A model generated the notes under the pieces. That model had not been told where the DNA came from. It worked only from the letters and a program-made list of their open reading frames with translations, and did no database searches. From positions 1 through 55,322 of IMG/VR virus record IMGVR_UViG_3300004225_000001: a stretch of 55,322 bases of DNA. The stretch is one strand, 5' to 3'. The translations under genes and the position numbers were made by a program. Shown piece after piece: positions 1 to 12,816 of this stretch. Source of the stretch: a virus (Duplodnaviria; Caudoviricetes). Every line of letters starts with the position of its first letter. Position 1 is the stretch's first letter.

Positions 1-47
1 ATCTGGAGGCGCGGCGCGGAGTCGAACCGCGCTAACCGGATTTGCAA
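1..47. repeat. Left attachment-site core (duplicated 3' half of tRNA-Cys)
   Basis: Identical to 55276-55322. The reverse complement reads TTGCAAATCCGGTTAGCGCGGTTCGACTCCGCGCCGCGCCTCCA. Sequence beyond position 47 does not supply a tRNA 5' half. Confidence 0.95.
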
Positions 48-204
48 GGCCAATTTGCTCTATGGTGACAAACACTTGCGAACCGGCTACCAATTTGGCT
101 ACTTTTCGCTCTGCCTTTCCCGCGCGTCCTCAATGTCAAGGATCGCATTGAGCTGCCCCGCAAGCTCCGCATACCCCGCCCTGCACTGCGCTATTGCACC
201 CGGC

Positions 205-525
205 TTATTTCAGATACAGCGCCGGCAGCACAAACCCCGCAGCGAATAGATCGGCGTGGTAGTCGCTGGCGCTGCACGCCGGGTCTTTTGATGCGCATTC
301 CGCCATGGCCTGCAGCGCAGTCTGGCAGCGCACGGTTTCATTCGGGAACACTTCGCGCAGGCACTGGCTCTCGATGTAGCGGAAGGCCTGAAACACGGCC
401 GGATTGATGGCCTGGTTGCGCGCACGCTCTGGGGCACCGAAAAACACCCACCAGGCCACCCAGGCGCCAAGCACCCAGGAAAGCGGGACGATCCAGTGGC
501 GGCGCCTTGCGTACCAGGCTTTCAT
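205..525 (-). CDS. Small membrane protein (N-terminal TM helix, 4-Cys C-terminal domain); moron-like
   Basis: 106-aa ORF; hydrophobic WIVPLSWVLGAWVAWWVFFG; extended -10 TGcTACCAT 7 nt before the ATG. Confidence 0.7.
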   Translation of the reverse strand: MKAWYARRRHWIVPLSWVLGAWVAWWVFFGAPERARNQAINPAVFQAFRYIESQCLREVFPNETVRCQTALQAMAECASKDPACSASDYHADLFAAGFVLPALYLK

Positions 526-547
526 GCGCGCGATGGTAGCACCGCTC

Positions 548-3500
548 TCAATTGAGCTTCATGTTCAGCTCATGCTGCAGCTTGCGCTTTTTGTCCTGCT
601 CGATGGCGGTCAAGCGCTGGAACTCTTCTTGACCAATGCGGCCGGTCTGCAGCTGGCGCTTGTACTGGCTGATGTTCTTGTCGATCTCCATCTTCTCGGC
701 GCCGAACTTGCCCATGAGGTTCCTGCGCATCACGTCGGGCGGATAGCTGCCCAGCTTCACGCCGAATGATGAGGCCACCGCCTGAGCGGTTGACATTTCC
801 CGGCCAAAGGCGTCGGTACGCCCGGTCAGCGAACCAACGACCCCCGTGGTTGCATAGGTCCCAGGCACGCCAAGCACATTCGGCGCGGCGGCTTTGTACA
901 TGTGATCCAGGAATTTCTCGGCCTTTTGCCGCGCGGTGTCGGTCCCTAGCGTGATTGGCTTTCCGGTGAAGGCGCTCTTGTTCAGTGCAACCTCGGCCAT
1001 CACCGCCAGCGGGCCGCCAGGCTGCAGGCCGGGCAGAATTGGGATGGCCGACTGGCCCTGCCCAATGTCAAATACGTCGCCTACAGGAATGAACCGGCGA
1101 ATGTCCAGATACACAGGGCTGTTGTGACCGTCGTTCCATGGCATGCGGATCAATTTCGGAACCATCCCCCAGACGTTGCCGGCTTTCTCTTCCGGCAACA
1201 GCTTGCGCTCATCTTCGTCGCCGCCGCCCGCGCCAGCAAGCATCACCCCCAGAGCATTGAGCCCACCGGCCAGCGCCATCAGCTTGAGCAGCTTGTGGGG
1301 CTTGCGCGCAACGGTTTCAAGCAGCATTGGCACGGCGCGGTATGTGAAGGACAGGAACGGCCAGGCCGACTTGCGCATGGCATTGATCCACGGCGCATTG
1401 ATGTTGTAGTCGAGGAATGATGCTTTCGCGCGCTTGCCAGCGTCCAGATCCGTCGCGCCCTGCTCTTTCGCGGCCAGCCAGGCGCCAAGGCGGAACACGT
1501 CGTCTTCGGCCTGGTAGGCATCGAGCAGCGCACCGCCTGCAACTTTCACCGCTTTGCCAGGAAGGCTGACAGCCGCTGCATCAAACGCCGCCGGGAAGCG
1601 CAGATGCAGCGCGTGCTGAAGCGCAGCAAAAACGCCGGTCTGGGTTTCCGCATTTCCGCCATTGGTGGCCGCCATCTCGCGTTCCAACGACGCCAGCAGC
1701 GGCTCGATCTGGTCGCGCGAGATCTCATTCGTCACCCAGGATCCCGAATCGCCACCGCTGTCGGAATAGCGGTTGAGGATCTCGCGCGCCGCGTCTCGGT
1801 CCGCAATGCCGCCACGCTTATCGCTGGCCGCTAGCATGATGCGCAGCGCTTTGGAGACATGGGCGGCGTGCACCTCGTGCCAGTCGGCCATCACGAAGTT
1901 CGACATGACGTTGTTCATGTGCACCGCAGGGCTCAGCGCGGTTTTGCTGGTCTTCCACAGATTCAGCACCTTGTTGTACGTGTCGCCGAACGGCTGGAAC
2001 CCACCGCCGGCCATTTGGCGCAGATCGTTCCACACCGGGCCCTCAACGTAGCGCCCGGCCAGCTTGCCGTACTTGAGCACATTGGTGCCGGCGATCTTGC
2101 TGTCGGGCACGCGCACCCATTCGCCAGGCGCGAAGGTGTCGCGGTACTTCTCCGAGGCGTCCACCACTTCGCCGGGGATGGCTTCGCCCTCCTTCTTTGC
2201 ATGGTTGATGGCCAGCCAGTCCAGATAGCGCCCGACTTCCACGTCGTGGATCATGGCGTGCAGGGTTTTTGCGATGGCGAAACGCGCCTCGTCAATCTCC
2301 CCCATTTGCTCGCGCTCGTCCTTGGTGAAGTCGCGCCACAGCACCGCATTGGGGCCCTTCACATCGCGCACTTCCCAGGTTCCTGCCTGCGTCCAGTCGG
2401 CGTATTTGGCAGGCAGGCGCTCGCTGGCGGGCCAGTAGGCCAGCTCCAGCACGCGGCCCGGTTGCCTGCCGGTCATGCCGGGAAGTGGCGTCGTGCCGGT
2501 GCCGGATGGAGCGCGGCGCTCCAGGCGAAGCAGCTGCTCTCCCTTGAGTGCGGCATCAGCCTTTCCCTTGGCAAGCTTGCGCTGCCACCAGTCGGGAGCC
2601 GCGCTTTTGATGGCGGACATGGCGGCCGTCTCGCTCAGGCCGCGCCCCTTGTACTGCTCGCCCAGCACAGCGATGGTGCGCGCGCGCTTGGCCTTTTGCC
2701 CCTTGGTCTGCTCCAGCGTGTGCTTGGCGTAGCTGCGGCGCAGATAGGCAAATCGGTTGCGCTTGAAGGCCTCCGGGTCGAGTTGGCCCAGGCGCACGGC
2801 GTCCTTGGAAAGGCGGTCGATCATCTCCTGCACTTCTTGCAGCACGGCCACCGATTCCTCGGGCAGCCCTTGCATCATGGAGACGTAGGCCTGCGGGTCT
2901 GCCCCGTCCATGTTCATCCACTCGTAGGCCACGCGGCTCTCGGCGCGGGTCAGCGTGGCGAGCTTCTCGATCAGTGAGCCGGCCTTGCGCAGCTGCACGC
3001 GCTGGCGCCCCTGCAGCATGGTGCGCTGGTCCTTCACCGCCTCGGGCAGGCCGTAGTCGGACATCACGCCCGCCTTGACCTTCTCGGGCACGACGGCATC
3101 CAGTAGGCTCGCCGCTTTGTCGTAGATCGCGCCAGTGAGGCGCTCCACGCCAGTGCCGCGGGTCAGGCCTTGGGCAATAGCGTCGAGCGGCCGCACACCG
3201 CCGGTGCGGTCTTGGATGATGGCCTCGGCGCGCGTGGCAGCATCCTGCGCAGGCGCGGCGCGCGACAGGCGGATGTCTGGATTGGTGGGGTCGAAGGTGC
3301 CGCGGTTGCCGGTGGCGCTCTTGATCTGCTCGGGGCGAAACACGATCCAGGTGTCGCCGCCTTCCATCCCGCGAATCACATAGGCGTCATGGCCCGCGCG
3401 CCGCGCTTCGGCCGGCGTCAGCTTGCCATTGCGCTCAAGACCGACCTGCCAGTCGTCATCCTGAATCTCATAGGGGTGGGTCGCGGTCAGATACGCCGGA

Positions 3501-6500
3501 ATAACGTTGCCACCATCGTCCCCGGTGTTGGCGTAGTCGCTGGCAAATCGAGGATTCGTGGTGAAGTATTGGCCCTGCTGATCTTCCGGCACAAGCGAAT
3601 CGCGGAAAGTGGAGAAGTCGTAGGTCGTCCCGTGGTACACCACCAGCGGCTTGCCAACGGCATCCACCACCTTGCTGTCGCCAAACCAGCGCTTGAACGC
3701 CGCGCTTTCCGTCTGATCGCCAGCCATCCCCCGCGAAAGCATCGCCTCCCCGGGCCGCTGAATTCCAAGCCGCTTCGCCACCAGCTCGTACACCTTGGGA
3801 TTGCGAGCAGCCAGATCCTCGGCGTCGCGGTAGCCGCGCTCCCTGGCCTCGGTCTGCAGGCGTTTTTCCTGGCGCGCCTGGTCGTCGGCCAGCGCGGCAG
3901 ATAGGCGCGTGCCGGCCGCTTTGGCGCCGTCGCTTGCCCCCGCCTTGCCGGCCATGTATGCGCGCGCGCCGCGCACCAGGTCAGCGACGAACAGGTCGGC
4001 GCGCTGCTGCTCGCTCAACGTGCCGTCGAGCCAGGTGCTCAGCTTGGCGGCCATGGCGGTGAAACCGTGCTCGGCCAGCCAGTCGCGCGCCAGCGCCGTG
4101 ACCTTGCGCCAGCCCTTGAGCTGCGCAAGCTGGGCGCTTGGAATGTCCACAATGACCTCCTCCACAGCCTCGGCGTTGGTCAGCTTGCCGCGCTTTTGCA
4201 GCGCCGTGGCTGCCTTGCGCACGGCGCCGTTGTTGGCGTAAATCAGGCTCATGGCCTGGGTTTTCGCGTCGCCCAGGATGGCGTGCAGCCCGAAGTGCGC
4301 AGCTTCGTGTTCGGCCAATACGTGCTCGGCGCGCAGCGCGTCGGGCAGGCCGCTGGCGAACAGGTAGAACTCGCCCTCGTGCATGGCGCCGTCCACGTCG
4401 TTCCATGCACCCTGCTCTTCGATGTAGTCGCGCAGTCCCTCGGGCGCCAGCGTCGGATCGGCGAGCACATGCACCTTGGGCATGCGTGGGTTCTTGGCGG
4501 CGATGCGGTCGGCCAGGGCCTGCAATTCGGCCACGGGCATGCCGGCGGGTTCGCCATCGCCGCGGCTGAGTGGGCCTAGCTCCGTCTTGGCTAGAATCTG
4601 TCCGCGCCTCTGTTCTCCGGGCAAGCCAGTCAATCGCGGCTGGAACGATCCGGAGGCAGGGGCGCCCTTGTTTTCGTCGCCATTTGGCGGTTCACTGCGG
4701 CTCAGGCGGATGTCTGGGTTGGCGGTGTCGAAGGTGCCTCGGTTGCCGGTGGCGCTCTTGAGCTGGTGCTTGTTGCGCAATGCCAGCGAAATTCCGGCTT
4801 CGTCTTCAACATAGACGGAATCTGCTGATGGGTTGTCTCGCAGGGCCTTGGCGACGTCCAAAAAGTGGACGGGCGTGTCGGGGCTGTTCAAGGGGCTTTC
4901 GGCCCTGGCGAACAGCTCCATGGTTTTGCCGCTGCTGAGCGCGGCCACGCGCGCCCCCGTCTGGCTGAACGCGACGAAGATTGGTTTGTCGTCGCGGAAG
5001 GTGGAGAAGTCTGATTTCGTTTCGTGGTACACCACCGCCGGCTCGCCGGTGTCAGGGTCCACCACCTTGGAGACACTTTCAGCGGCTACCTCGGGGTCTT
5101 CGGCCTGCACGGCTTCCCAGTCGCCAAACCAACTCCTGAATGCCGGCGTGCGCACCTGTACCCACTGCTCATAGGTGAGCTTCGTTTCGCCTGACGCCTC
5201 GGCCTTCTCGTAGACGTCGCGCCCACCCTCATTTTCGATGCCGCCCTCGCTGTTTTGCGGGAAATGCTTGTTCAGCACCCGCTCAGCCGCAGCGCGGGCA
5301 TTGGCCGTCAGCTGGCGCTGCCACGCGCCTGCGTTCGGCGACCACTTGAACCCGTTGGCTTTCAAGTCGCTCCGGACGGCTTCGCCAGGCTTCTCGTCGA
5401 AGAACAGGCGCAGCCTATCGTCTTGGGCGTTTTCCTCGGTGCGCACGCCTTGGCGAGCGGTTGCTACGGGGCCTGCAGCAGCTTCCGCCACGCGCTGCTC
5501 GGCCTGCGCCAAGCGCTCACGCAGCCGGCGAATCTCGGCATTGTTGTTGGCCAGCTTGTAATCCGCATAGCCCCGGCGTCCGGCAAAATCGGGCTTCTTG
5601 AGCTCGGCGATCAGCGCCGGCGAGTAGCCAAGCGCCACCAGGGGCTCGTCGTCCTTTTTGCGCAGGGCGGCGTTCACGGCTTTCATGCGCTCCTGCGTGG
5701 CCTCACGCTCTTCCAGGTTGGCGCGGATGCGCGCCACCTCGGAGTCCGGGCTGTTGTCGATCGGGCCACGGGCCGCCTTTGCCATGCGGGCAATGCCCTT
5801 GCGCAGAAATTCGCTGGCCTCCTGGGCGCGCTTGTCGGCAGTTTCCGACTTCTTGCGGTTCGCCTCCGCGGGGAAGCGCGCGGGCCCAGCGATCATTGAG
5901 GACATCACCCGTGCACTCGCGCCCAGCGCCTCCAGGTAGCGCGACCGGTAACCCTCGACCACATCGCCCAGAACCTCCACCGCGCGCGCACGCGCCGCGG
6001 CGTCATCGCCGAGCGCGGCCTCGGTCCGTTTCCAGGCATCGACCAGGGCCCGCACATAGTTTCGCCGTGCGCTGGCGCCGCGCTGCTCGGGGCTGTGAGA
6101 AGTGCCAGAGTAGGCCTGCGTTGCGGCATCGCGTGGAATATCCGATTCCCGCACCGGAACCGGCATGGCAGCAGCGAATTCGCGCAGAGCCTCGTATTGC
6201 CCATCATGGATCGCCTGAGTCAGGCCGTCGGCACGCATGAACGAGCCAGGCTCCATCGCGTCCAGCGCTTGCCGGCCCAATTCCGCAACAATGGCGTCGC
6301 GCGCCTGCTCGCGCAGCGCGGCCACGTCACCATCAGGCTGGGCCTTGGCGATGTCTGTGGCAATTTGTGTTGCCGTGCGCACTACGCCGGCTGGTTCAGG
6401 CTCGCTATTTTTGGCGTCCGCGCGTAAAATCGAAGCCGGAGGTGTCCCGATGAAAGTGCCCGATAAATTCCCGCCCGGCTGCGAATTCGTGGCGTCATTC

Positions 6501-9500
6501 AGCGGAGACGAGTTCGTTAAATTCCCCGACGGCAAGGTTTTCAGGCTCGACGACAACGGCTCCGATTTGTTGCCCGCCAAGTCGCTCCCCGCCAAGTCGC
6601 TCCCCGCCAGATCCGCAGCGCCAATTTCCGAAGCCGTTTTCTTGAGCTGCGCACGCGGCTGCCGCGAATTTTCCGCCACCGGCAAGGTCAACTTGTTCCC
6701 GGCCGCAGCAAACGCGGCATCGTAGAACTCGCGCATCGCGTCGCCGATTTCTTTGTACGCGGCCGACGCCTCGGGCTGCACCCGCTGCGCCTCATACAAT
6801 TTGTGCCCCTGGGCATCCTTTGCCGCCAGCATTTGCGGCACATTGATCTGGATCTCCGCCGCCACTCCGTCAGGCAGCACCACATTCAGTAGCACGTCGG
6901 CATAGCCATCGATCCGGGCATCCTCAGAAATGCGGGTCTTGACGCGCGCCACGCTACCAAACACCTTCACGACAGCATCAACCACGGCCTGCACGTCGCC
7001 GTAGCTGCTCACCACCACCGTGGCGCGCAGCAAATCGCGCATCCTCTCAGGGCTGAAATCTGCGCCGTCCGGGTCGACGTACTTTTCGACGGCCCGGTCC
7101 ATATTCTTGACGGACGCGACGATCTGGCCCAGGGCGCCGGACTGCTGCGCCACAGCAGCAACATTCTTGGCGAAGCCCTGAAAAGCGCCCAAGGCTGCAT
7201 CGAGCAGGGGCTTTAGCTCCGCTTTTGCGCGCGCACGGTCCTTGGGCGACACGACCATGGGCCGCGGCTGCTTGGAGTATTTCTCGATGTAGCCATTTGC
7301 TCGCGCGATCAACTCAGCGGGCAGAAAGGTTTTCGCCGACGGAGGCCGGTAGTTGTCACGGTCGCGGTCGTAGGCCTTGCTCTCGATCTTCGATACAGCG
7401 GACGTAGCCTCAGTGGCCTTGGCAGGGCTGTTAAACAGATCGCCCTGAACGGCGCTTGCAGCCTCTCCGATATCGCCAAAAAGTCCATGCTGCGCCGGGT
7501 TCGCCATACCGTCCAGTGCCTGCAGCGCTGCCTTCTGGTAGAGCTCCGGGCTGATCTTGTTCCAGAAGGTTTTAAAACGCGGGTCGGCCTTGATCTGCTC
7601 GCGCACCCACTTGGTCGCCCGCTTCATGTCGGTGCCCACCAGCCGGATGGCAGCGTCGAACAGCTTGGCCAGCGTGGGCATCAGGTCGGGGGTCTTCTCG
7701 GGAACCATGGCGGCGCGCGTGTGCTTGCTGGCAATCTGCGCCAGATCACCCAGGGCGTCCTTGAAGTCCTGCACGGCGGCAGCGCGCTGACCCACCGGGG
7801 TTTTGTCGCCTTCACTTTGCTGCACGCTAGGGAACTCACGCACGGCATCGAGCAGCTCACGGATCGGCGCATCCAGACGGATCACGGGGACACTCTCGCC
7901 AAGCGCCTTCATCGCCATCCACTGGTGGTGGCCGTCCAGCACATGGCCGTCAGACGACACCAGCACAGACCGCTCGCCGATCGACCCGGTCTTCATGAAC
8001 CGTTCGGTCTTTTCGCGCGAAAACTCCGCTTGCGTCGGTTTGAGGCTGGACGCCGGCACCTCGTCCTTGGTGCTGCTAATACCGCGCGCGTTTAGGAAGT
8101 TGACCAGGGCGCCGCGGTGCTCACCTTTGACTTGCGGCATGTCGCTCCGGGGAATACCCAGCGTGCCGGAATCCTCGGGGAAGTGGACCCATTCGCCTAC
8201 TTCGTCGTTTGCGGCTTCGCGCGCTGGTTTTCCAGGCTGTCGTCCTGCGGCATCGGCTTGGGTAGGCCCATTGCCTTGATCGCGGCCTTCACTGCGCGGC
8301 GCATCTTGGGGTTGCCCTCCATCGCGCGCATCAGCTTGTGCACCTTCTCCAGCGACTCCCCGCTGGGGGTCTTGGTCAGCATTGCCATTCTGGGTTTCCT
8401 TTGCGGTATTGATCAGGCTGGCGCGCGTGGGCGCTGGCCCATCGTCGCCAAACATGGATGGCTGGGTCGGGTCGCCAGCATGCTCCAGCGCATCGTAATA
8501 ACGCTGGAAGAACTCGGCAATGCGGCGCGGGCTGCGCGCGTTCTCGCTCAAGAATGTCAGCAGCTCGGCCGCCTCGGGGCTGTACTTGGGCCCGGTCAGA
8601 TCCGCCTGGCCCAGCTCGTCGGACACTTTCCAGCCCTTCTCCTTAAGCGCTGAGAGGCCTTCGACGGCAGCCAGCAGATCGGGGGCGATGTCGGCCTGGT
8701 GCAAGGTGCCAGCGTCCATGCGCTCGCGCGCGGCGGCGATGGTCGGCGCCACACGCACCAGCGCCTTGCTGATGTTGGCCAGGTTGTTGTCCATGCTCTC
8801 CGTCATGCGGCGCAGCGATGGAGAATCCCCGTAGGCGCGGGCCAGCACGGCATTCTGGATGCGGCGGTAGCCGGCGGTGGACAGGCGCCCGTCCGACTCG
8901 ATCAGGTCGCTCTGCTCGGTGACGGGCAGCGTGGCCATGAACTGGCGCACAAAGTCCATGTTGTTGCCAAAATCCCCTTGCTCGTCCGGGTTCAGGCCGT
9001 CGAGGGAATTGAGGCGCTTGGCGTCCGACAGCGCCTGCTCGCTCGGGCTCATGCGCTGCACGGTGCTGGCGTTGGCCTGGCGCGCGAACTCGGCGCGGTT
9101 CACCGGCGTGGCACGCACGCGCACCAGCACGGGCTTGGCCATGGCGTCGATGGCTTCGGGAGCCAGCCCAAACTGCGCCGCGTTGTCACGCAGGAACTGT
9201 TTGTAATTCTCGGCCTTCTGGCCGTTGGCCTGGTAGACGCGCTTGAGCGCAATGGTCCGCGCGTTGCCCGACTCCACCAATCCGTCCGCGCCCACGATAG
9301 GCGCGCCGTTGGCAGCATCCGCCGACAGGCCCAGGCGGGCCGGGTCAAGTCGCTGCACGATGCCCGAGACTTGCAATTCGCTGGCCTGGCGGCTGCGATC
9401 GCGCGGCTGCAATTCCTTGGGGAAAAGCGGATTGACTGCCAGCCCCTCGTCGTGCGACGTCACCAGATCGCCCGCGTCCATCAGCGCGTACTGCGCCTCC

Positions 9501-11101
9501 AGGCGTGCGCCGGCTTCGGTGGTGAACGAGGACATGGCGCCGCGCTCGGCCTTGGGCCAGGTCGAGGCGATGCTCTCTCGCTCAGCGGCCAGCTCGGCGG
9601 CCTTGGTGGCCAGGTCTTGGCGCTCGCCATCAAAGGCGGGCCCGTAGCCGTTCTCTGGCGCCAGTTCCTGCTGGCGCTCAGTGATGGCCTGCAGCTCGCC
9701 GCCCAGCGCATCGGCGCGGTCCAGCGCGGTCAGTTGCACCGGGGTTTTCAGCGCTTCCTCGGCGGCGGCGGTGTCGCCTACCCCAACGGCTTCCAGGCCG
9801 GCCGATCCTCTTCCCGCCACGACTCCTGCGGCTGCTCCTGAATTGGTAGCTGCTTGCGCTTGTCCTGAAAGCGCTGGCGCCTGATTTTGCTGGTTTTCTG
9901 CTGGCGTTTGGTTTTGGACATTGCTCCCCCTAAAGTTGTCTCGCGCATAGCCCAAGCCATGCCCGCCGGAGCCCATGGCGAAGCCAGCGGCCAGGTTCTG
10001 GGCCGCAGAGCCGCCCGGGTCGTATTGCTGCGAAGGGTCTGCCTGCACCGAGGCGCCGTACTGCACGGCATCTTCTGGCACGCCCTGGAATCCCTCTTCC
10101 ACGGTATCTTGTGCAACGCGCTTGCCGAACTCGCGAATTCCCATACGCTCGACGCCGGCGATGGTCTTGGCCGTCGCGTCGCCGCCAAAGAGTTTGTTGG
10201 TCAGCACGGTGCCCAGCGCAGTCCCTGCGCCCGCCAGCAGCGGAACTTGGTCTGCCAACTCATTGGCCAATATCTCGCGCGCCTTGGCCGGGTCTCCTTG
10301 GGTTTCTGCCAGCACAGCCTGGAACCGAGGCGACTTGGCCAGCATTTCCAGCGGCATTTCATTGACTTGCTGGTACACGCCCTGGCGTGACTGCAGGGCC
10401 GACGACGACGCCTCAGACAGCGCTCCAGCGGTACTCACCCGCCCCAGGCTGGCGCCCGCGCGGTGCACCACAGAACCAACCCCGACGCCAGCTGCCATAT
10501 CGGGAGCGGATCGGGCCATGGTGTGCGCGAAAGCCAGTGGGTTGTCCTTGATGGCCGCCAGGTTGTCGACAAACCCCTGTGCTTCTGCGGTGTTCTGCTG
10601 CTGAGCGATCAGCTCGGGGTTGTTGGCTTTGTCGGACGCCAGGATCTCTGCCTTTGCGCGCTCGGAGTCGCGCTGGAGCATGCGGCCAAAACGGGCCGGG
10701 AGGTTGCTCGGGTCCGCTACCTGCGCATCGCGCGACTCCGCAGCAAAGCGAGAGGCCAGCCGGGCATTTTCCTGGACGGCCTCGTTTTCCTTGGCGATGT
10801 CTTTGCCGCTGATGGCGTTGGCGGCCCAGGTGATGCCGCGATCTGCTGCAGCCGCTGCGCCAGACACGCCGGCGAGTGCGTTCGCCGCAGGATCCTGAAT
10901 GAATGTTCCGATGCCGCCAGCAATGCCTGCGACGCCCTGCGCAAGGCCAGAATCTATGGCGTGCAAGTAATCTGCGGCCGTCGCCTGGCTTTTGCGTTTC
11001 TTGCGCTCGTTGACGATCGGGTCATCCGCCCACCACGCATCGCCGTCCTGCGCGTCCTCGCCAGAGGCAATAGGATCCTGTTCCCACCATTTTTCGGCCA
11101 T
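548..11101 (-). CDS. Giant polyvalent internal virion/ejection protein (~3517 aa): DdrB-ParB, ParB-like, RelA/SpoT-like, DUF3560-like, 2x ART-PolyVal-like and HExxH peptidase domains
   Basis: Motifs LQPRDR...GAPIV...VESGNARTIAL; LKPTQ...VLDGHHQW; VK..R..EK / RDLLRATVVV / GYADVLLNV / AEIQI; GFKWSP..GAWQRQLT; twice F..WFGD..VVYH..KSATGNRGTFD; HEAAH. Last gene of the virion module. Start placed at MAEKWW (an alternative ATG lies at 11125). Confidence 0.9.
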   Translation of the reverse strand: MAEKWWEQDPIASGEDAQDGDAWWADDPIVNERKKRKSQATAADYLHAIDSGLAQGVAGIAGGIGTFIQDPAANALAGVSGAAAAADRGITWAANAISGKDIAKENEAVQENARLASRFAAESRDAQVADPSNLPARFGRMLQRDSERAKAEILASDKANNPELIAQQQNTAEAQGFVDNLAAIKDNPLAFAHTMARSAPDMAAGVGVGSVVHRAGASLGRVSTAGALSEASSSALQSRQGVYQQVNEMPLEMLAKSPRFQAVLAETQGDPAKAREILANELADQVPLLAGAGTALGTVLTNKLFGGDATAKTIAGVERMGIREFGKRVAQDTVEEGFQGVPEDAVQYGASVQADPSQQYDPGGSAAQNLAAGFAMGSGGHGLGYARDNFRGSNVQNQTPAENQQNQAPALSGQAQAATNSGAAAGVVAGRGSAGLEAVGVGDTAAAEEALKTPVQLTALDRADALGGELQAITERQQELAPENGYGPAFDGERQDLATKAAELAAERESIASTWPKAERGAMSSFTTEAGARLEAQYALMDAGDLVTSHDEGLAVNPLFPKELQPRDRSRQASELQVSGIVQRLDPARLGLSADAANGAPIVGADGLVESGNARTIALKRVYQANGQKAENYKQFLRDNAAQFGLAPEAIDAMAKPVLVRVRATPVNRAEFARQANASTVQRMSPSEQALSDAKRLNSLDGLNPDEQGDFGNNMDFVRQFMATLPVTEQSDLIESDGRLSTAGYRRIQNAVLARAYGDSPSLRRMTESMDNNLANISKALVRVAPTIAAARERMDAGTLHQADIAPDLLAAVEGLSALKEKGWKVSDELGQADLTGPKYSPEAAELLTFLSENARSPRRIAEFFQRYYDALEHAGDPTQPSMFGDDGPAPTRASLINTAKETQNGNADQDPQRGVAGEGAQADARDGGQPQDAPRSEGRDQGNGPTQADAAGRQPGKPAREAANDEVGEWVHFPEDSGTLGIPRSDMPQVKGEHRGALVNFLNARGISSTKDEVPASSLKPTQAEFSREKTERFMKTGSIGERSVLVSSDGHVLDGHHQWMAMKALGESVPVIRLDAPIRELLDAVREFPSVQQSEGDKTPVGQRAAAVQDFKDALGDLAQIASKHTRAAMVPEKTPDLMPTLAKLFDAAIRLVGTDMKRATKWVREQIKADPRFKTFWNKISPELYQKAALQALDGMANPAQHGLFGDIGEAASAVQGDLFNSPAKATEATSAVSKIESKAYDRDRDNYRPPSAKTFLPAELIARANGYIEKYSKQPRPMVVSPKDRARAKAELKPLLDAALGAFQGFAKNVAAVAQQSGALGQIVASVKNMDRAVEKYVDPDGADFSPERMRDLLRATVVVSSYGDVQAVVDAVVKVFGSVARVKTRISEDARIDGYADVLLNVVLPDGVAAEIQINVPQMLAAKDAQGHKLYEAQRVQPEASAAYKEIGDAMREFYDAAFAAAGNKLTLPVAENSRQPRAQLKKTASEIGAADLAGSDLAGSDLAGNKSEPLSSSLKTLPSGNLTNSSPLNDATNSQPGGNLSGTFIGTPPASILRADAKNSEPEPAGVVRTATQIATDIAKAQPDGDVAALREQARDAIVAELGRQALDAMEPGSFMRADGLTQAIHDGQYEALREFAAAMPVPVRESDIPRDAATQAYSGTSHSPEQRGASARRNYVRALVDAWKRTEAALGDDAAARARAVEVLGDVVEGYRSRYLEALGASARVMSSMIAGPARFPAEANRKKSETADKRAQEASEFLRKGIARMAKAARGPIDNSPDSEVARIRANLEEREATQERMKAVNAALRKKDDEPLVALGYSPALIAELKKPDFAGRRGYADYKLANNNAEIRRLRERLAQAEQRVAEAAAGPVATARQGVRTEENAQDDRLRLFFDEKPGEAVRSDLKANGFKWSPNAGAWQRQLTANARAAAERVLNKHFPQNSEGGIENEGGRDVYEKAEASGETKLTYEQWVQVRTPAFRSWFGDWEAVQAEDPEVAAESVSKVVDPDTGEPAVVYHETKSDFSTFRDDKPIFVAFSQTGARVAALSSGKTMELFARAESPLNSPDTPVHFLDVAKALRDNPSADSVYVEDEAGISLALRNKHQLKSATGNRGTFDTANPDIRLSRSEPPNGDENKGAPASGSFQPRLTGLPGEQRRGQILAKTELGPLSRGDGEPAGMPVAELQALADRIAAKNPRMPKVHVLADPTLAPEGLRDYIEEQGAWNDVDGAMHEGEFYLFASGLPDALRAEHVLAEHEAAHFGLHAILGDAKTQAMSLIYANNGAVRKAATALQKRGKLTNAEAVEEVIVDIPSAQLAQLKGWRKVTALARDWLAEHGFTAMAAKLSTWLDGTLSEQQRADLFVADLVRGARAYMAGKAGASDGAKAAGTRLSAALADDQARQEKRLQTEARERGYRDAEDLAARNPKVYELVAKRLGIQRPGEAMLSRGMAGDQTESAAFKRWFGDSKVVDAVGKPLVVYHGTTYDFSTFRDSLVPEDQQGQYFTTNPRFASDYANTGDDGGNVIPAYLTATHPYEIQDDDWQVGLERNGKLTPAEARRAGHDAYVIRGMEGGDTWIVFRPEQIKSATGNRGTFDPTNPDIRLSRAAPAQDAATRAEAIIQDRTGGVRPLDAIAQGLTRGTGVERLTGAIYDKAASLLDAVVPEKVKAGVMSDYGLPEAVKDQRTMLQGRQRVQLRKAGSLIEKLATLTRAESRVAYEWMNMDGADPQAYVSMMQGLPEESVAVLQEVQEMIDRLSKDAVRLGQLDPEAFKRNRFAYLRRSYAKHTLEQTKGQKAKRARTIAVLGEQYKGRGLSETAAMSAIKSAAPDWWQRKLAKGKADAALKGEQLLRLERRAPSGTGTTPLPGMTGRQPGRVLELAYWPASERLPAKYADWTQAGTWEVRDVKGPNAVLWRDFTKDEREQMGEIDEARFAIAKTLHAMIHDVEVGRYLDWLAINHAKKEGEAIPGEVVDASEKYRDTFAPGEWVRVPDSKIAGTNVLKYGKLAGRYVEGPVWNDLRQMAGGGFQPFGDTYNKVLNLWKTSKTALSPAVHMNNVMSNFVMADWHEVHAAHVSKALRIMLAASDKRGGIADRDAAREILNRYSDSGGDSGSWVTNEISRDQIEPLLASLEREMAATNGGNAETQTGVFAALQHALHLRFPAAFDAAAVSLPGKAVKVAGGALLDAYQAEDDVFRLGAWLAAKEQGATDLDAGKRAKASFLDYNINAPWINAMRKSAWPFLSFTYRAVPMLLETVARKPHKLLKLMALAGGLNALGVMLAGAGGGDEDERKLLPEEKAGNVWGMVPKLIRMPWNDGHNSPVYLDIRRFIPVGDVFDIGQGQSAIPILPGLQPGGPLAVMAEVALNKSAFTGKPITLGTDTARQKAEKFLDHMYKAAAPNVLGVPGTYATTGVVGSLTGRTDAFGREMSTAQAVASSFGVKLGSYPPDVMRRNLMGKFGAEKMEIDKNISQYKRQLQTGRIGQEEFQRLTAIEQDKKRKLQHELNMKLN
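3266..3324. repeat. 59-bp direct repeat, copy A (end of second ART-like domain)
   Basis: 55/59 identical to 4703-4761 by manual alignment; encodes KSATGNRGTFD..NPDIRL. Confidence 0.9.
4604..4674 (+). ncRNA. Candidate antisense hairpin sRNA nested in the giant gene
   Basis: TAGAAT at 4592-4597; three stacked stems 4604-4612/4657-4665, 4615-4620/4650-4655, 4626-4631/4638-4643 with G-U pairs that only form on the + strand; followed by CTTGTTTT. Confidence 0.4.
4703..4761. repeat. 59-bp direct repeat, copy B (end of first ART-like domain)
   Basis: 55/59 identical to 3266-3324. Confidence 0.9.
6450..6725 (+). CDS. Nested antisense gene (91 aa); candidate immunity protein/antitoxin for the RelA/SpoT-like domain
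   Basis: TAAAAT at 6425-6430, GGAGGTG RBS at 6438-6444, ATG at 6450; globular-looking MKVPDKFPPGCEFVASFSGDEFVKFPDGKVFRLDD; the opposite host frame is a Ser/Asn-rich linker. Confidence 0.65.
   Translation: MKVPDKFPPGCEFVASFSGDEFVKFPDGKVFRLDDNGSDLLPAKSLPAKSLPARSAAPISEAVFLSCARGCREFSATGKVNLFPAAANAAS
6573..6613. repeat. 15-bp tandem repeat (2 full copies plus 1 partial) in the dual-coding region
   Basis: CCCGCCAAGTCGCTC twice plus CCCGCCAGATC; reads DLAGS in the giant protein and LPAKS in the antisense ORF. Confidence 0.9.
8197..8388 (-). CDS. Overprinted same-strand, alternate-frame gene (63 aa, basic helical protein)
   Basis: AAGGA RBS 8 nt before the ATG; amphipathic SLEKVHKLMRAM...MRRAVKAAIKAMGL; coincides with the low-complexity linker after the DdrB-ParB domain. 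Confidence 0.55.
   Translation of the reverse strand: MAMLTKTPSGESLEKVHKLMRAMEGNPKMRRAVKAAIKAMGLPKPMPQDDSLENQRAKPQTTK
9833..9888. repeat. Dispersed REP-like hairpin element, copy 1 (inside coding sequence)
   Basis: TAGC-N4-tgCGCTT-N7-AAGCGCT-ggcgcctgATTT aligns with 44873-44927 and 51163-51216. Confidence 0.7.
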
Positions 11102-11132
11102 GCAAACCCCCGGATTCAAGTGCATGGGACAT

Positions 11133-11148
11133 TGCCATGCCTGCCACG
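11133..11148 (-). promoter_or_regulatory. Late-gene 16-bp motif, copy 1 (upstream of the giant gene)
   Basis: + strand TGCCATGCCTGCCACG; consensus TGCCATGCYTGSCACG found five times in the same orientation. Confidence 0.75.
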
Positions 11149-11154
11149 GGCGGC

Positions 11155-12816
11155 CTAGCGCTTCTTGATGCGCACCGTACCGTCTGGCGCCGTGTAGCGT
11201 GATCCAGCAGGCAAGTCGTCAAATTCCTTGCGCGTGGAAATCGGCGGCGCGTCGTACACCTTGCCGCTCGCGGAGCGCCCAGGCTCGGCTTTGCCGCCGC
11301 TATCTGCGGCAGCAGGCGGGAATAAGTAGGACATGGCCGCTTCGGTGGCAGTCTTCGCGGCATCGGCGTTGCCCATGTTGGCCGCCAGTGCCTTGCCGTA
11401 AATATCGGACCGCACGGACTCTGGAGACTTGTCGTTGTTCTGCATCGCCTTGCGCAGGCCTTCGGCTTCATTCTTGGCAAGCCCCGCACGCACCAGCGCA
11501 CCGGCAAGTTTCACTTGGGCCGGAGCATTTCCGTCCGTCTCGGGCACCGCCTTCATGATGCCCTTGCGTACAGCATTGATCTCGGCTTCGCTGGCGTTCG
11601 GGTGTTTCTCCTGGAACAGCGCGGCAGCGGCCTCGGCCTTGTCGGTTGCATCGCGCCGGGTTTGCGCACGGTCAGACATCGCAGCCCCCTGGCTGGCCCC
11701 AGCCCGAGAATCCGCATTGCGCGAGAGCTGCAGCTGCTCATTGCCGCGCCGGTTGCCTTCGGCCTGGTAGAACCGGCTGAACACTTCTCCCGCCTTCCCC
11801 AGCGCGTCCAGCTCGGCCACGGTGTTGATGGTGCGGATGTCGCCGTTCTGGTCCTTGAATTGGAGCACGCGGGTTTCCACGCCGTCCTTGCCCTTGACCA
11901 TTTTGTCGCTGACGATGGCGGCCGGGTCCAGCTGCACCTTGCCCGAGGCGTTGAAGGCCTTGGCAATCTCGGCCGCCCCGGCGCCGCTTTGTGCCAGGCG
12001 CAGCGCGCGCTCGTAGCCCTCGCTCTGCACCTTGTTGAGCATGTCGGAGAACTCTCCAAAGCTGCGTGTGTCGAGCTTGCCGTATTTGGCGTCGTGGTCC
12101 ACCAAGGCAGCGCGGTCGGCAAGCGAGTCGCCAATCGAGTATTCCGGCCGGCGCGGGGCAACGGGCGCAGTCCCAAGCTCGTCGGGCGACTTGCCGGCGG
12201 CCTTGTCGGCCTCGTATTTATTGAGCGCCGACTGGTACTGCTTGGTGGCTTCGGCATACTGGTTTTGCTGCTGGCCGAACCGGGTGTCTGCGAACAGCGC
12301 ACGGCGAGACTTCTCGTATTCGTCCTTGTCAGCCTGCTGTGCATCCTGGCGGCCCCAGTCCTTTTGCGTGCGGTCCCAGCGGGCGTCGTCGCGCTCTTCT
12401 GTCTTGGCCTCGCGGCGCAGACGCATCGCCCCCATGGGGTCGCTCTTGCCAATCACGCCGGCCATGGCCATGGTGCGCGCGCGGTCCTGCTGGTCTGCAT
12501 TCATGGGCCCCGCAGTGCGCTTGCCAAGAAAGTCCGTCACCCCTTGCTGGGCAATCTCCCCAGTCATGCTCGGGTCAGACTTCGGCGTCACGGTGTACGC
12601 CTTCTTGGAGTCGTCGTATCCGATGTCGTACTGGCCAGACTCCCCTGCGGCACGCAATTGATCGCCTTGCTCGGAGGTGAACCCATCGCTGGTTTCTGCC
12701 TCGGCGTCGCCGATCTTGCGCAGCTGGTAGTCCTGCACCACTTGTCCGACGGCTTTGTATCCCTGGTTGAAGCCATCCATGAAGTCAGCAACACCATTGC
12801 GCCTGCGTCGTGCCAT
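11155..12816 (-). CDS. Putative internal virion/DNA ejection protein (553 aa)
   Basis: Ala/Gln/Asp-rich helical protein between an ejection protein and the giant gene; start overlaps the upstream stop (TAATG). Confidence 0.75.
   Translation of the reverse strand: MARRRRNGVADFMDGFNQGYKAVGQVVQDYQLRKIGDAEAETSDGFTSEQGDQLRAAGESGQYDIGYDDSKKAYTVTPKSDPSMTGEIAQQGVTDFLGKRTAGPMNADQQDRARTMAMAGVIGKSDPMGAMRLRREAKTEERDDARWDRTQKDWGRQDAQQADKDEYEKSRRALFADTRFGQQQNQYAEATKQYQSALNKYEADKAAGKSPDELGTAPVAPRRPEYSIGDSLADRAALVDHDAKYGKLDTRSFGEFSDMLNKVQSEGYERALRLAQSGAGAAEIAKAFNASGKVQLDPAAIVSDKMVKGKDGVETRVLQFKDQNGDIRTINTVAELDALGKAGEVFSRFYQAEGNRRGNEQLQLSRNADSRAGASQGAAMSDRAQTRRDATDKAEAAAALFQEKHPNASEAEINAVRKGIMKAVPETDGNAPAQVKLAGALVRAGLAKNEAEGLRKAMQNNDKSPESVRSDIYGKALAANMGNADAAKTATEAAMSYLFPPAAADSGGKAEPGRSASGKVYDAPPISTRKEFDDLPAGSRYTAPDGTVRIKKR

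Follow-up and report, generated by a model that had tools for sequence, protein, structure and literature searches.

Two small genes appear to be nested inside the gene for a giant polyvalent protein of a tailed phage (Duplodnaviria; Caudoviricetes), one of them encoding a probable immunity protein for a toxin-like domain of that same giant protein. The phage is IMG/VR virus record IMGVR_UViG_3300004225_000001, and the window analyzed here is the whole stretch from position 1 to 55,322 (55,322 nucleotides [nt]), which is a whole virus record with direct terminal repeats. The giant gene occupies positions 548..11125 on the minus strand. Comparison with homologous genes indicates that two linkers of this open reading frame (ORF) are overprinted by genuine genes: a 91-amino-acid (aa) antisense gene (6450..6725, plus strand) and a 63-aa gene in the +1 frame (8197..8388, minus strand). 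The antisense gene lies just behind a domain related to the toxin Tas1, and structural modeling makes its product a probable Tis1-like immunity protein for that domain. Taken as a whole, a giant polyvalent ORF overprinted by an antisense immunity gene and by a +1-frame gene is the best explanation of the data, and we consider it likely to be correct. The original prediction, made from the sequence alone, had placed three expression units in linkers of the giant ORF, namely, these two ORFs and an antisense hairpin with a −10 box. All three are present in the DNA, and the claim that the linkers hide genes without breaking the giant ORF is true for two of them.

Conservation of the nested genes

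The G+C content in the giant-gene region is 62 to 67%, and the giant gene contains 57 alternate-frame ORFs of at least 60 aa, compared with 51.2 ± 4.3 in 300 synonymous-codon shuffles. The bare presence of a nested ORF therefore means nothing, and conservation is the test. For this purpose, 76 viral loci with homologous giant genes were fetched. When all 92 alternate-frame ORFs of at least 35 aa were scanned against these genes, only the two ORFs named above gave strong matches in one consistent frame: the +1-frame ORF in 19 loci, with a median of 60 bits against 38 bits for the main frame, and the antisense ORF in 26 loci, with 60 against 50 bits. When 8785 alternate-frame segments from 77 giant genes were all compared with one another, 161 clusters present in at least 4 loci emerged, only 5 of which had a nested frame clearly above the main frame (median difference of >20). 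These five clusters are the two families of the window, two +1-frame families without a window member, and a shadow of one of the latter. The nested frame outscored the main frame in 97% of 155 pairs for the antisense gene and in 77% of 107 pairs for the +1-frame gene. The main-frame sequence is of low complexity in both places, being rich in G, A, D, Q, P, and R over the +1-frame gene and in A, S, L, G, and N over the antisense gene. Column-wise identity on the main-frame alignment was uninformative because the linkers misalign, and tblastn and score comparisons were used instead.

Family hidden Markov models (HMMs) recovered 25 loci for the antisense gene and 28 loci for the +1-frame gene, all of them inside the giant gene and in a constant relative frame. 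Both frames, when translated in the aligned regions of relatives, give recognizable, conservatively varying proteins. As in an overprinted gene, the ORF, the start, and the ribosome site are conserved in diverged relatives, and selection is visible in the nested frame. Neither nested protein has a Pfam, NCBIfam, or Atlas match, and the protein clusters that match them carry uninformative names ("hypothetical protein") and are mostly from short contigs. That standard annotation would miss such genes had been anticipated, and a tblastn search of 50,697 GenBank phage records found a match to neither protein. The broader claim that each effector module travels with its own antidote was not borne out: in an unbiased all-frame scan, conserved nested genes occur at only two places in the window, and none was found at the two ART-like domains, the HExxH region, the primase-like module, or the second ParB-like module, which are described below. 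Two longer antisense ORFs of the giant gene, at 1859-2977 (plus strand; 372 aa) and 8699-9841 (plus strand; 380 aa), show conservation that is no more than a main-frame shadow, so length alone is no guide in G+C-rich DNA.

The antisense gene and its predicted expression signals

The antisense gene is conserved in 25 loci and is nested in every one. Its start codon stands at the aligned position in all 25 (22 ATG, 2 GTG, and 1 TTG), and by this alignment the inner ATG chosen in the original prediction is the true start. The predicted expression signals of the window copy are a GGAGG ribosome site (6438-6442, plus strand) and a −10-like TAAAAT hexamer (6425-6430, plus strand). Among the 24 distinct antisense sequences, 22 have GGAG or GAGG no more than 24 nt upstream, compared with 7.2% of the antisense ATGs in the same genes. 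TAnnnT stands at exactly −25 to −20 in 20 of the 24, against a background of 0.0023 per position, and 15 of these 20 have the extended form with TG (TGnTAnnnT). The overlying giant-frame peptide varies freely between loci at these signals. Read in the giant frame, the opposite strand of the hexamer gives I, S, T, or N and then, in most cases, Val as GTA, a codon that accounts for 6.6% of Val, and this pattern fits a −10 box rather than a protein constraint. A second conserved element, CAGTATAT, is present in most relatives (e.g., loci L004, L009, and L023) about 21 nt upstream of the −10 box and about 45 to 52 nt before the antisense start. It reads as a Y-T dipeptide in the giant frame, is lacking in the window, and is a candidate promoter element or binding site.

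The proteins of the antisense family are 33 to 73% identical to that of the window. Among called proteins, mostly on short contigs, the family is represented by 25 clusters at the 90% identity level and, with E values of ≤0.001, by 79 at the 50% level. The AlphaFold2 model of the window protein, with five strands and a C-terminal helix, has a predicted local distance difference test score (pLDDT) of 82.2 and a predicted template modeling score (pTM) of 0.71. The ratio of nonsynonymous to synonymous differences (pN/pS) of the antisense frame is below that of the main frame in 106 of 140 pairs. The case for the antisense gene rests on its signals, its fold, and the score comparison given above.

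The Tas1-like domain and its probable immunity protein

The domain that precedes the antisense gene (aa ~1330 to 1477; 6695..7138, minus strand) resembles RelA/SpoT-type, toxSAS-like nucleotide pyrophosphokinases. Its sole PDB sequence match by phmmer is Tas1 (Apk1), the (p)ppApp-synthetase effector of the Pseudomonas aeruginosa type VI secretion system, which forms an effector-immunity pair with Tis1 (PDB 6OX6). The match to chain 6ox6_A has an E value of 4.3e-7, covers aa 51 to 198 of the searched piece and residues 276 to 439 of Tas1, and ends at the Tas1 C terminus, where the antisense gene stops. Across 25 homologues of the domain, K51, R55, K59, D75, R78, T80, G118, Y119, E135, N139, K147, and H152 are invariant, and the alignment shows no difference from Tas1 in the D-L-x-R-x-T and E-I-Q-x-N stretches. 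We take these invariant residues to be the catalytic residues of the family. Judged by its sequence, the domain is a putative alarmone synthetase of the Tas1/Apk type. Tas1 itself is described in the literature as a divergent toxSAS-related domain.

The Tas1-like domain and the antisense gene occur together. The domain was found in 29 loci, and tblastn detected the antisense gene in 24 of these; the remaining 5 comprise 2 that are cut by contig ends, 2 with a divergent antisense ORF, and 1 that was left unchecked. Conversely, all 25 loci of the antisense family have the gene within the giant gene, immediately after the Tas1-like domain. In a fold search of 48,161 chains carried out independently of Foldseek, the model of the antisense protein ranked the Tas1 immunity protein (6ox6_B) second, a weak match with a Z score of 4.7, a root mean square deviation of 3.6, and 60 of 76 residues aligned. 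This weak match gains weight because the neighboring domain independently matches chain A of the same entry.

A complex of the two was modeled from a 25-row alignment of the domain and a 41-row alignment of the small protein, with three controls. The score was 0.68 (individual runs, 0.70, 0.68, and 0.67), and the best control reached 0.01; the mark used for such scores is reached by 58 of 80 solved complexes and by 2 of 110 mismatched pairs. The runs agree in at least 82% of contacts, and the partner has a pLDDT of at least 79. The predicted interface involves domain residues 62 to 67, 75, and 86 to 125, including the invariant Asp75, and residues 15 to 20, 35, 43 to 47, and 55 to 84 of the small protein. 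The proposal that the antisense ORF is the antidote of the neighboring RelA/SpoT-like domain thus finds support in the Tas1 match, the weak Tis1 fold match, the co-occurrence of the two, and the complex model, and the antisense protein is probably a Tis1-like immunity protein.

The +1-frame gene

In each of the 28 loci where the +1-frame gene is conserved, it is in frame +1 and comes after the DdrB-like block of the giant protein; the second ParB-like module follows in 23 of the 28. An AAGGA ribosome site (8397-8401, minus strand) lies upstream of its ATG at 8388. Fourteen of 19 loci have this ATG at the aligned place; in 3 others, the rule used picked a TTG, and the ATG comes one or two codons later. 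Of 17 sequences, 15 have a Shine-Dalgarno-like motif (GGAG or GAGG) upstream, compared with a background of 20%. In the region of this gene, the third position of main-frame codons is the least variable (0.332) and the first is the most variable (0.478), with the other at 0.413. The nested frame has a pN/pS ratio of 0.75, compared with 1.11 for the main frame, and its value is the lower one in 104 of 128 pairs. The AlphaFold2 model of the protein is a helical hairpin with a pLDDT of 74.8 and a pTM of 0.39. As to its role, we can only guess that it is a partner or inhibitor of the DdrB-ParB module.

Evidence against the interpretation and alternative explanations

Several observations count against the reading of two nested genes, one of them for immunity. 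The locus counts are phylogenetically nonindependent. The third positions of the antisense and main frames coincide, and part of the antisense conservation is therefore expected from the main frame; the per-position diversity over the antisense gene (0.421, 0.418, and 0.607) gives no frame discrimination, and the gap in pN/pS is small (0.67 for the antisense frame and 0.74 for the main frame). The window copy of the antisense gene has the −10 hexamer alone, with no TG and no −35 element, and a sigma-70 consensus scan of positions 1-12000 found no promoter. A metatranscriptome contig is identical to positions 6475-6915, but RNA contigs carry no strand. The Tas1-like domain reaches only 15.7 bits (E value of 0.019) with Pfam RelA_SpoT, below the cutoff of 27. 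The fold search tool warns that Z scores below 8, such as the 4.7 for Tis1, may reflect a mere common arrangement, and an unrelated superoxide dismutase ranked first (Z score of 5.2). Foldseek gave no match to the antisense protein at an E value of ≤0.001, and Tis1 was not among its top 1000 chains. The profile of the antisense family (41 sequences) had no PDB match at an E value of ≤10; known Tis1-like proteins share only 24% identity (PMC10083569), so the absence of a sequence match to Tis1 says little. The Tas1-Tis1 complex is already solved, and the high score of the complex model may therefore show likeness rather than binding of this copy. For the +1-frame gene, no start codon was found by the rule used in 2 of 19 loci, and the fold search was uninformative, with a best Z score of 3.0.

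An alternative explanation accepts the antisense gene as real and takes it for a lysogenic-conversion, superinfection-exclusion, or regulator gene that uses a tolerant linker as a landing site. A host-type promoter of its own in a temperate phage would resemble that of a moron, and relatives carry a similarly nested TnpV-like gene nearby, for which an antidote role is not apparent; the weakness of the Tis1 fold match and the lack of a sequence match point in the same direction. We nevertheless regard this explanation as unlikely in view of the strict position behind the Tas1-like domain in all 25 loci and of a complex model far above its controls, whose interface lies at conserved active-site residues.

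The hairpin at 4604-4665 (plus strand) is preceded by TAGAAT at 4592-4597 and followed by a T-rich tail to 4674, and it might be a functional antisense small RNA or a terminator tied to the ART-like domain. It shows a strand bias in folding (−41.7 kcal/mol and a shuffle z score of −3.97 on the plus strand, versus −29.7 kcal/mol and a z score of −1.16 on the sense strand), and there is a tendency toward structure behind ART ends in general: in the 120 nt behind seven such ends from six genes, z scores of the antisense strand range from −3.56 to +1.21, with a median of about −1.9, and two are clearly strand specific. Other features count against it. At least 26 nonoverlapping 80-nt windows of the 55-kb genome are as stable as the hairpin or more so, which leaves it outside the 26 most stable; a consensus scan made no promoter-like or terminator-like call at the site, and a search of positions 1-12000 gave no Rfam match there. 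None of the five loci aligned at that linker has an equivalent, and none was seen behind other ART ends, where conserved coding sequence is found. The hairpin core is in no other viral contig, which leaves covariation and conservation without comparison material. A function for the hairpin is rather improbable, and the claim that it forms an expression unit with its −10 box is not supported: it is stable and lacks a consensus signal, an Rfam match, and a counterpart in relatives. A plus-strand ORF at 4067-4579, which ends 25 nt before the hairpin, was considered as a gene-plus-terminator unit and rejected, its antisense identity (0.37) being lower than that of the main frame (0.53) and no conserved cluster being found.

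For the +1-frame ORF, ribosomal frameshifting offers another route to expression, which would give a truncated product of about aa 1 to 912 with a 63-aa tail. The ORF is on the same strand in the +1 frame, the frame is open well upstream of the ATG in several loci (by up to 106 codons), and two loci lack a start codon at the aligned place. Against this stand the ATG that is aligned in 14 of the 19 loci, or lies within 1 or 2 codons in 3 more, and the Shine-Dalgarno-like motif in nearly all sequences, and we think frameshifting very unlikely; independent initiation of a nested gene is the reading retained here. Finally, that the nested ORFs are nongenes, open frames typical of 65% G+C DNA that look conserved only because selection acts on the giant frame, would agree with their shuffle-like frequency, the unconserved antisense ORFs of up to 380 aa, and the coinciding antisense wobble positions, but it is scarcely credible given nested frames that outscore the main frame over identical DNA, start codons, ribosome sites, and a −10 box that are kept while the overlying residues vary, a main-frame third position that is least variable in the +1-frame gene, an antisense protein that folds confidently, and an intact antisense-family copy in a locus (L079, below) where the giant frame is destroyed.

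The phage genome and the architecture of the giant protein

The minus strand of the window encodes a P22-type portal, a PF13252 capsid protein, an SU10-type adaptor, tail-fiber-like genes, and an internal virion protein. An integrase, a CI-like repressor (helix-turn-helix plus S24), RecT, a YqaJ-type nuclease, and a C-5 methylase are also encoded. With an integrase, a CI-like repressor, a P22-type portal, and the other genes named, the phage is, by its gene content, a temperate, P22-like podovirus, and the window is taken to be its complete genome. Its capsid protein is 46 to 48% identical to the capsids of phages such as Pseudomonas phage Itty13 and Erwinia phage PEp14. The giant gene is the last of the structural block, near the genes for the internal virion protein, the SU10 adaptor, and the capsid, and this gene context suggests that the giant protein would be delivered with the DNA.

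The giant ORF was predicted to encode 3517 aa, and this held: 548..11125 is one open frame of 3525 codons with its first in-frame ATG at 11125, and Met9 (ATG at 11101) does not vary among 17 aligned homologous giants, on which account a product of 3517 aa starting at 11101 is likely. This product is identical to database protein P0004. Among 2250 candidates scored, 271 homologous giant proteins of 1938 to 6169 aa were found at an E value of ≤0.001. In the 120 homologues listed, aa ~450 to 1100 and ~2650 to 3500 are common to nearly all, aa 1300 to 1550 are common to about 80, and aa 1600 to 1950 are common to only 6. From this pattern of coverage, the giant gene consists of conserved N- and C-terminal blocks with exchangeable enzyme cassettes between them. 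A megablast search of GenBank phages with the giant gene and a tblastn search with its C-terminal 876 aa gave no match.

A large part of the giant gene (window positions 494-8644) is matched at about 90 to 99% identity by RNA sequencing contigs from a cultured organism (organism A; runs X19 and X21). Both runs contain a relative that is 93 to 96% identical across much of the gene; strand and expression level cannot be read from the contigs, and uncovered parts prove nothing. These matches indicate that a related prophage is present in an RNA library of the organism A culture. One X19 contig joins position 4344 to position 4415 on opposite strands with eight shared letters; a short inverted repeat probably caused this join during assembly.

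Of the seven domains named in the original prediction, the ddrB-ParB domain and the second ART domain are confirmed by Pfam, the RelA/SpoT-like domain is supported through Tas1, and the first ART domain falls just under the cutoff; the names "ParB-like 2," "DUF3560-like," and "HExxH peptidase" belong to conserved modules without a curated family match. All of the following lie on the minus strand. The ddrB-ParB domain (aa 539 to 671; 9113..9511; Pfam PF18763, E value of 1.7e-36) is part of a DdrB-like block (aa 524 to 910; 8396-9556; phrog_5143, E value of 6e-86) that is P1 DdrB-like by tblastn. The second conserved module (ParB-like; aa 966 to 1104; 7814..8230; phrog_11358, E value of 2.6e-32) carries the motif LDGHHQW and has no Pfam, NCBIfam, or PDB match, only PHROGs of unknown function. 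Behind the Tas1-like domain is a primase-like module, the "DUF3560-like" one (aa 1717 to 1952; 5270..5977; phrog_19458, "primase," E value of 1.2e-42), for which Pfam is empty at an E value of ≤1. ART-like domain 1 (aa 1967 to 2144; 4694..5227; phrog_30335) ends in DIRLSR at 4697-4714, and its aa 2026 to 2081 score 30.8 bits with Pfam ART-PolyVal against a cutoff of 31.2 when the piece is scanned alone. An HEAAH motif (aa 2273; 4295-4309) lies in a block of aa ~2200 to 2400 that is conserved in about 105 to 110 of the 120 homologues and is without a Pfam, NCBIfam, or credible PDB sequence match; PDB sequence searches with the second ParB-like and primase-like pieces likewise gave nothing credible. 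ART-PolyVal domain 2 (aa 2488 to 2611; 3293..3664; Pfam PF18760, E value of 4.4e-27) is followed by DIRLSR at 3260-3277. Both ART-like domains of the window have the identical ending ...KSATGNRGTFD..NPDIRLSR, which recurs in the ART modules of relatives and may be a cassette boundary or a processing site. The C-terminal block (aa ~2630 to 3525; 551..3238) is covered by 118 to 119 of the 120 homologues and is the best conserved part. This block of ~900 aa has no match in Pfam, in NCBIfam, or by tblastn in GenBank phages, and it may anchor or conduct the giant protein in the virion. With a ddrB-ParB domain, two ART-PolyVal stretches, a Tas1-like domain, and a primase-like module in one 3517-aa phage ORF, the protein has the composition of a polyvalent protein.

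Other nested families and an orphan copy

Two further nested families were seen in relatives. The third family, of ~95 to 108 aa in the +1 frame, occurs in 25 loci (L004:14358-14675 [plus strand], L003, L009, L011, L013, L015, L017, L020, L022, L030, and others), in the linker just downstream of the antisense gene and before a methylase-type module; the window is without it. Its nested frame scores above the main frame in 96% of 198 pairs, and 2 of 3 members tested reach the Pfam TnpV (PF14198) cutoff of 27, with 31.1 and 27.3 bits. The fourth is a +1-frame ORF of 129 aa in a different group of giant genes (L061:13323-13709 [plus strand], L063, L069, and L077). It scores 497 versus 409 for a low-complexity main frame, in four close loci only, and has no Pfam match.

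A scan of bacterial genome contigs found two loci. One of these, on a contig of a Silanimonas sp. metagenome-assembled genome (L079:6631-7437), is a remnant of a giant gene in which only aa 1420 to 1567 align. It keeps intact an antisense-family gene (7001-7267, plus strand), with a −10-like TAGAAT and AGGAGG upstream, and a TnpV-like gene (6631-6912, minus strand). These genes sit between an MmeI-TRD-like gene and D5_N/Toprim primase genes, and the antisense-family copy is possibly an orphaned immunity gene carried by a mobile island.

Comparison with known systems

The arrangement in the window is like that of Tas1-Tis1 in that a small, immunity-sized protein is encoded right behind the toxin domain. 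The acceptor-site occlusion published for Tas1-Tis1 (PMC11782079) also fits the complex model of the window, whose interface is in the active-site region. Unlike Tas1, which is the C terminus of a PAAR effector, the toxin-like domain of the window sits within a 3517-aa phage protein, a predicted virion component. Tis1 is encoded by a downstream, co-oriented gene, whereas the immunity-like gene of the window lies inside the toxin ORF, on the opposite strand, with a predicted promoter of its own, and no similarity in sequence between its product and Tis1 was detected. The (p)ppApp synthetases fused to phage MuF domains (Apk2), which come with Tis1-like and Aph1 immunity genes and belong with the MuF polymorphic toxins of temperate phages, are likewise phage-encoded and probably virion-carried toxins accompanied by a small tis1-like gene. 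Their immunity genes are separate downstream ORFs in an operon, unlike the immunity-like gene of the window, and a Pfam search of the giant protein found no MuF domain.

The polyvalent proteins described by Iyer et al. in 2017 (PMC5512222, main text), including P1 DdrB/DarB, combine many effector domains in one polypeptide, as in the window, and RelA/SpoT domains have been noted among them. P1 DdrB and the DdrB-like block of the window are about 35% identical. The terms "overlapping," "antisense," "linker," "frameshift," and "TnpV" are absent from that main text, which accordingly does not describe nested genes; relevant architectures could be listed in its supplementary files or in those of PMC10083569. 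P1 does have an annotated antisense ORF inside ddrB, iddB (L078:3477-3875), of 132 aa. It lies within the ddrB-ParB domain region and not in a linker as in the window, and because of this different position, it was set aside as a precedent. For the +1-frame gene, the ToxB-iToxB pair (bioRxiv 10.64898/2026.05.05.722872), a contact-dependent inhibition toxin of the ParB-CTPase fold with a small immunity protein encoded right after it, offers an analogy only; DdrB and polyvalent proteins have no occurrence in that paper. Nothing relevant came up in literature searches that paired polyvalent proteins with overlapping or nested genes, or in those on immunity genes that are embedded or lie on the opposite strand. 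Toxin-immunity pairs are well known, as are overlapping genes, and we found no report of a backward immunity gene inside the ORF of its own toxin with its own promoter.

Proposed mechanism and significance

From the ORFs, their conservation and signals, and the predicted fold and complex, we infer the following course of expression, binding, toxicity, delivery, and timing. The antisense protein would bind the toxin domain in the active-site region, in the manner of Tis1 and Tas1, and the domain would be kept inert while the giant protein is synthesized and packaged. When the giant protein threads out of the virion, the immunity protein would be stripped off, and its own host-type promoter would drive its early resynthesis in the lysogen or in the cell just infected. 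The renewed immunity protein might then end a toxic pulse or shield lysogens from related phages. The toxin domain and its immunity gene would move together in cassette exchange because they share the same DNA. The basic 63-aa protein of the +1 frame, predicted to form a helical hairpin, has a ribosome site to itself and would be translated from the late mRNA.

A more general design rule can be put forward, which we think somewhat less likely than not to hold. The disordered linkers between the cassettes of giant polyvalent genes, in at least four families, would code for small proteins that control neighboring modules; antisense immunity would make an injected, ATP-draining toxin a self-limiting pulse; and the immunity gene could be captured alone by bacteria or mobile elements as an antiphage device, a possibility suggested by the L079 copy and its restriction-type neighbor.

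Gene callers cannot annotate nested genes, and phage and prophage catalogues would therefore systematically miss such proteins. The comparison of alternate-frame with main-frame conservation across homologous giant genes provides a recipe for finding hidden genes of this kind, which would also explain the DNA-level conservation of "linkers" in giants. For toxins of the MuF and polyvalent types, the nested immunity gene would give a testable answer to the question of how a phage survives making the toxin that it injects and what turns this toxin off once it is in the cell.

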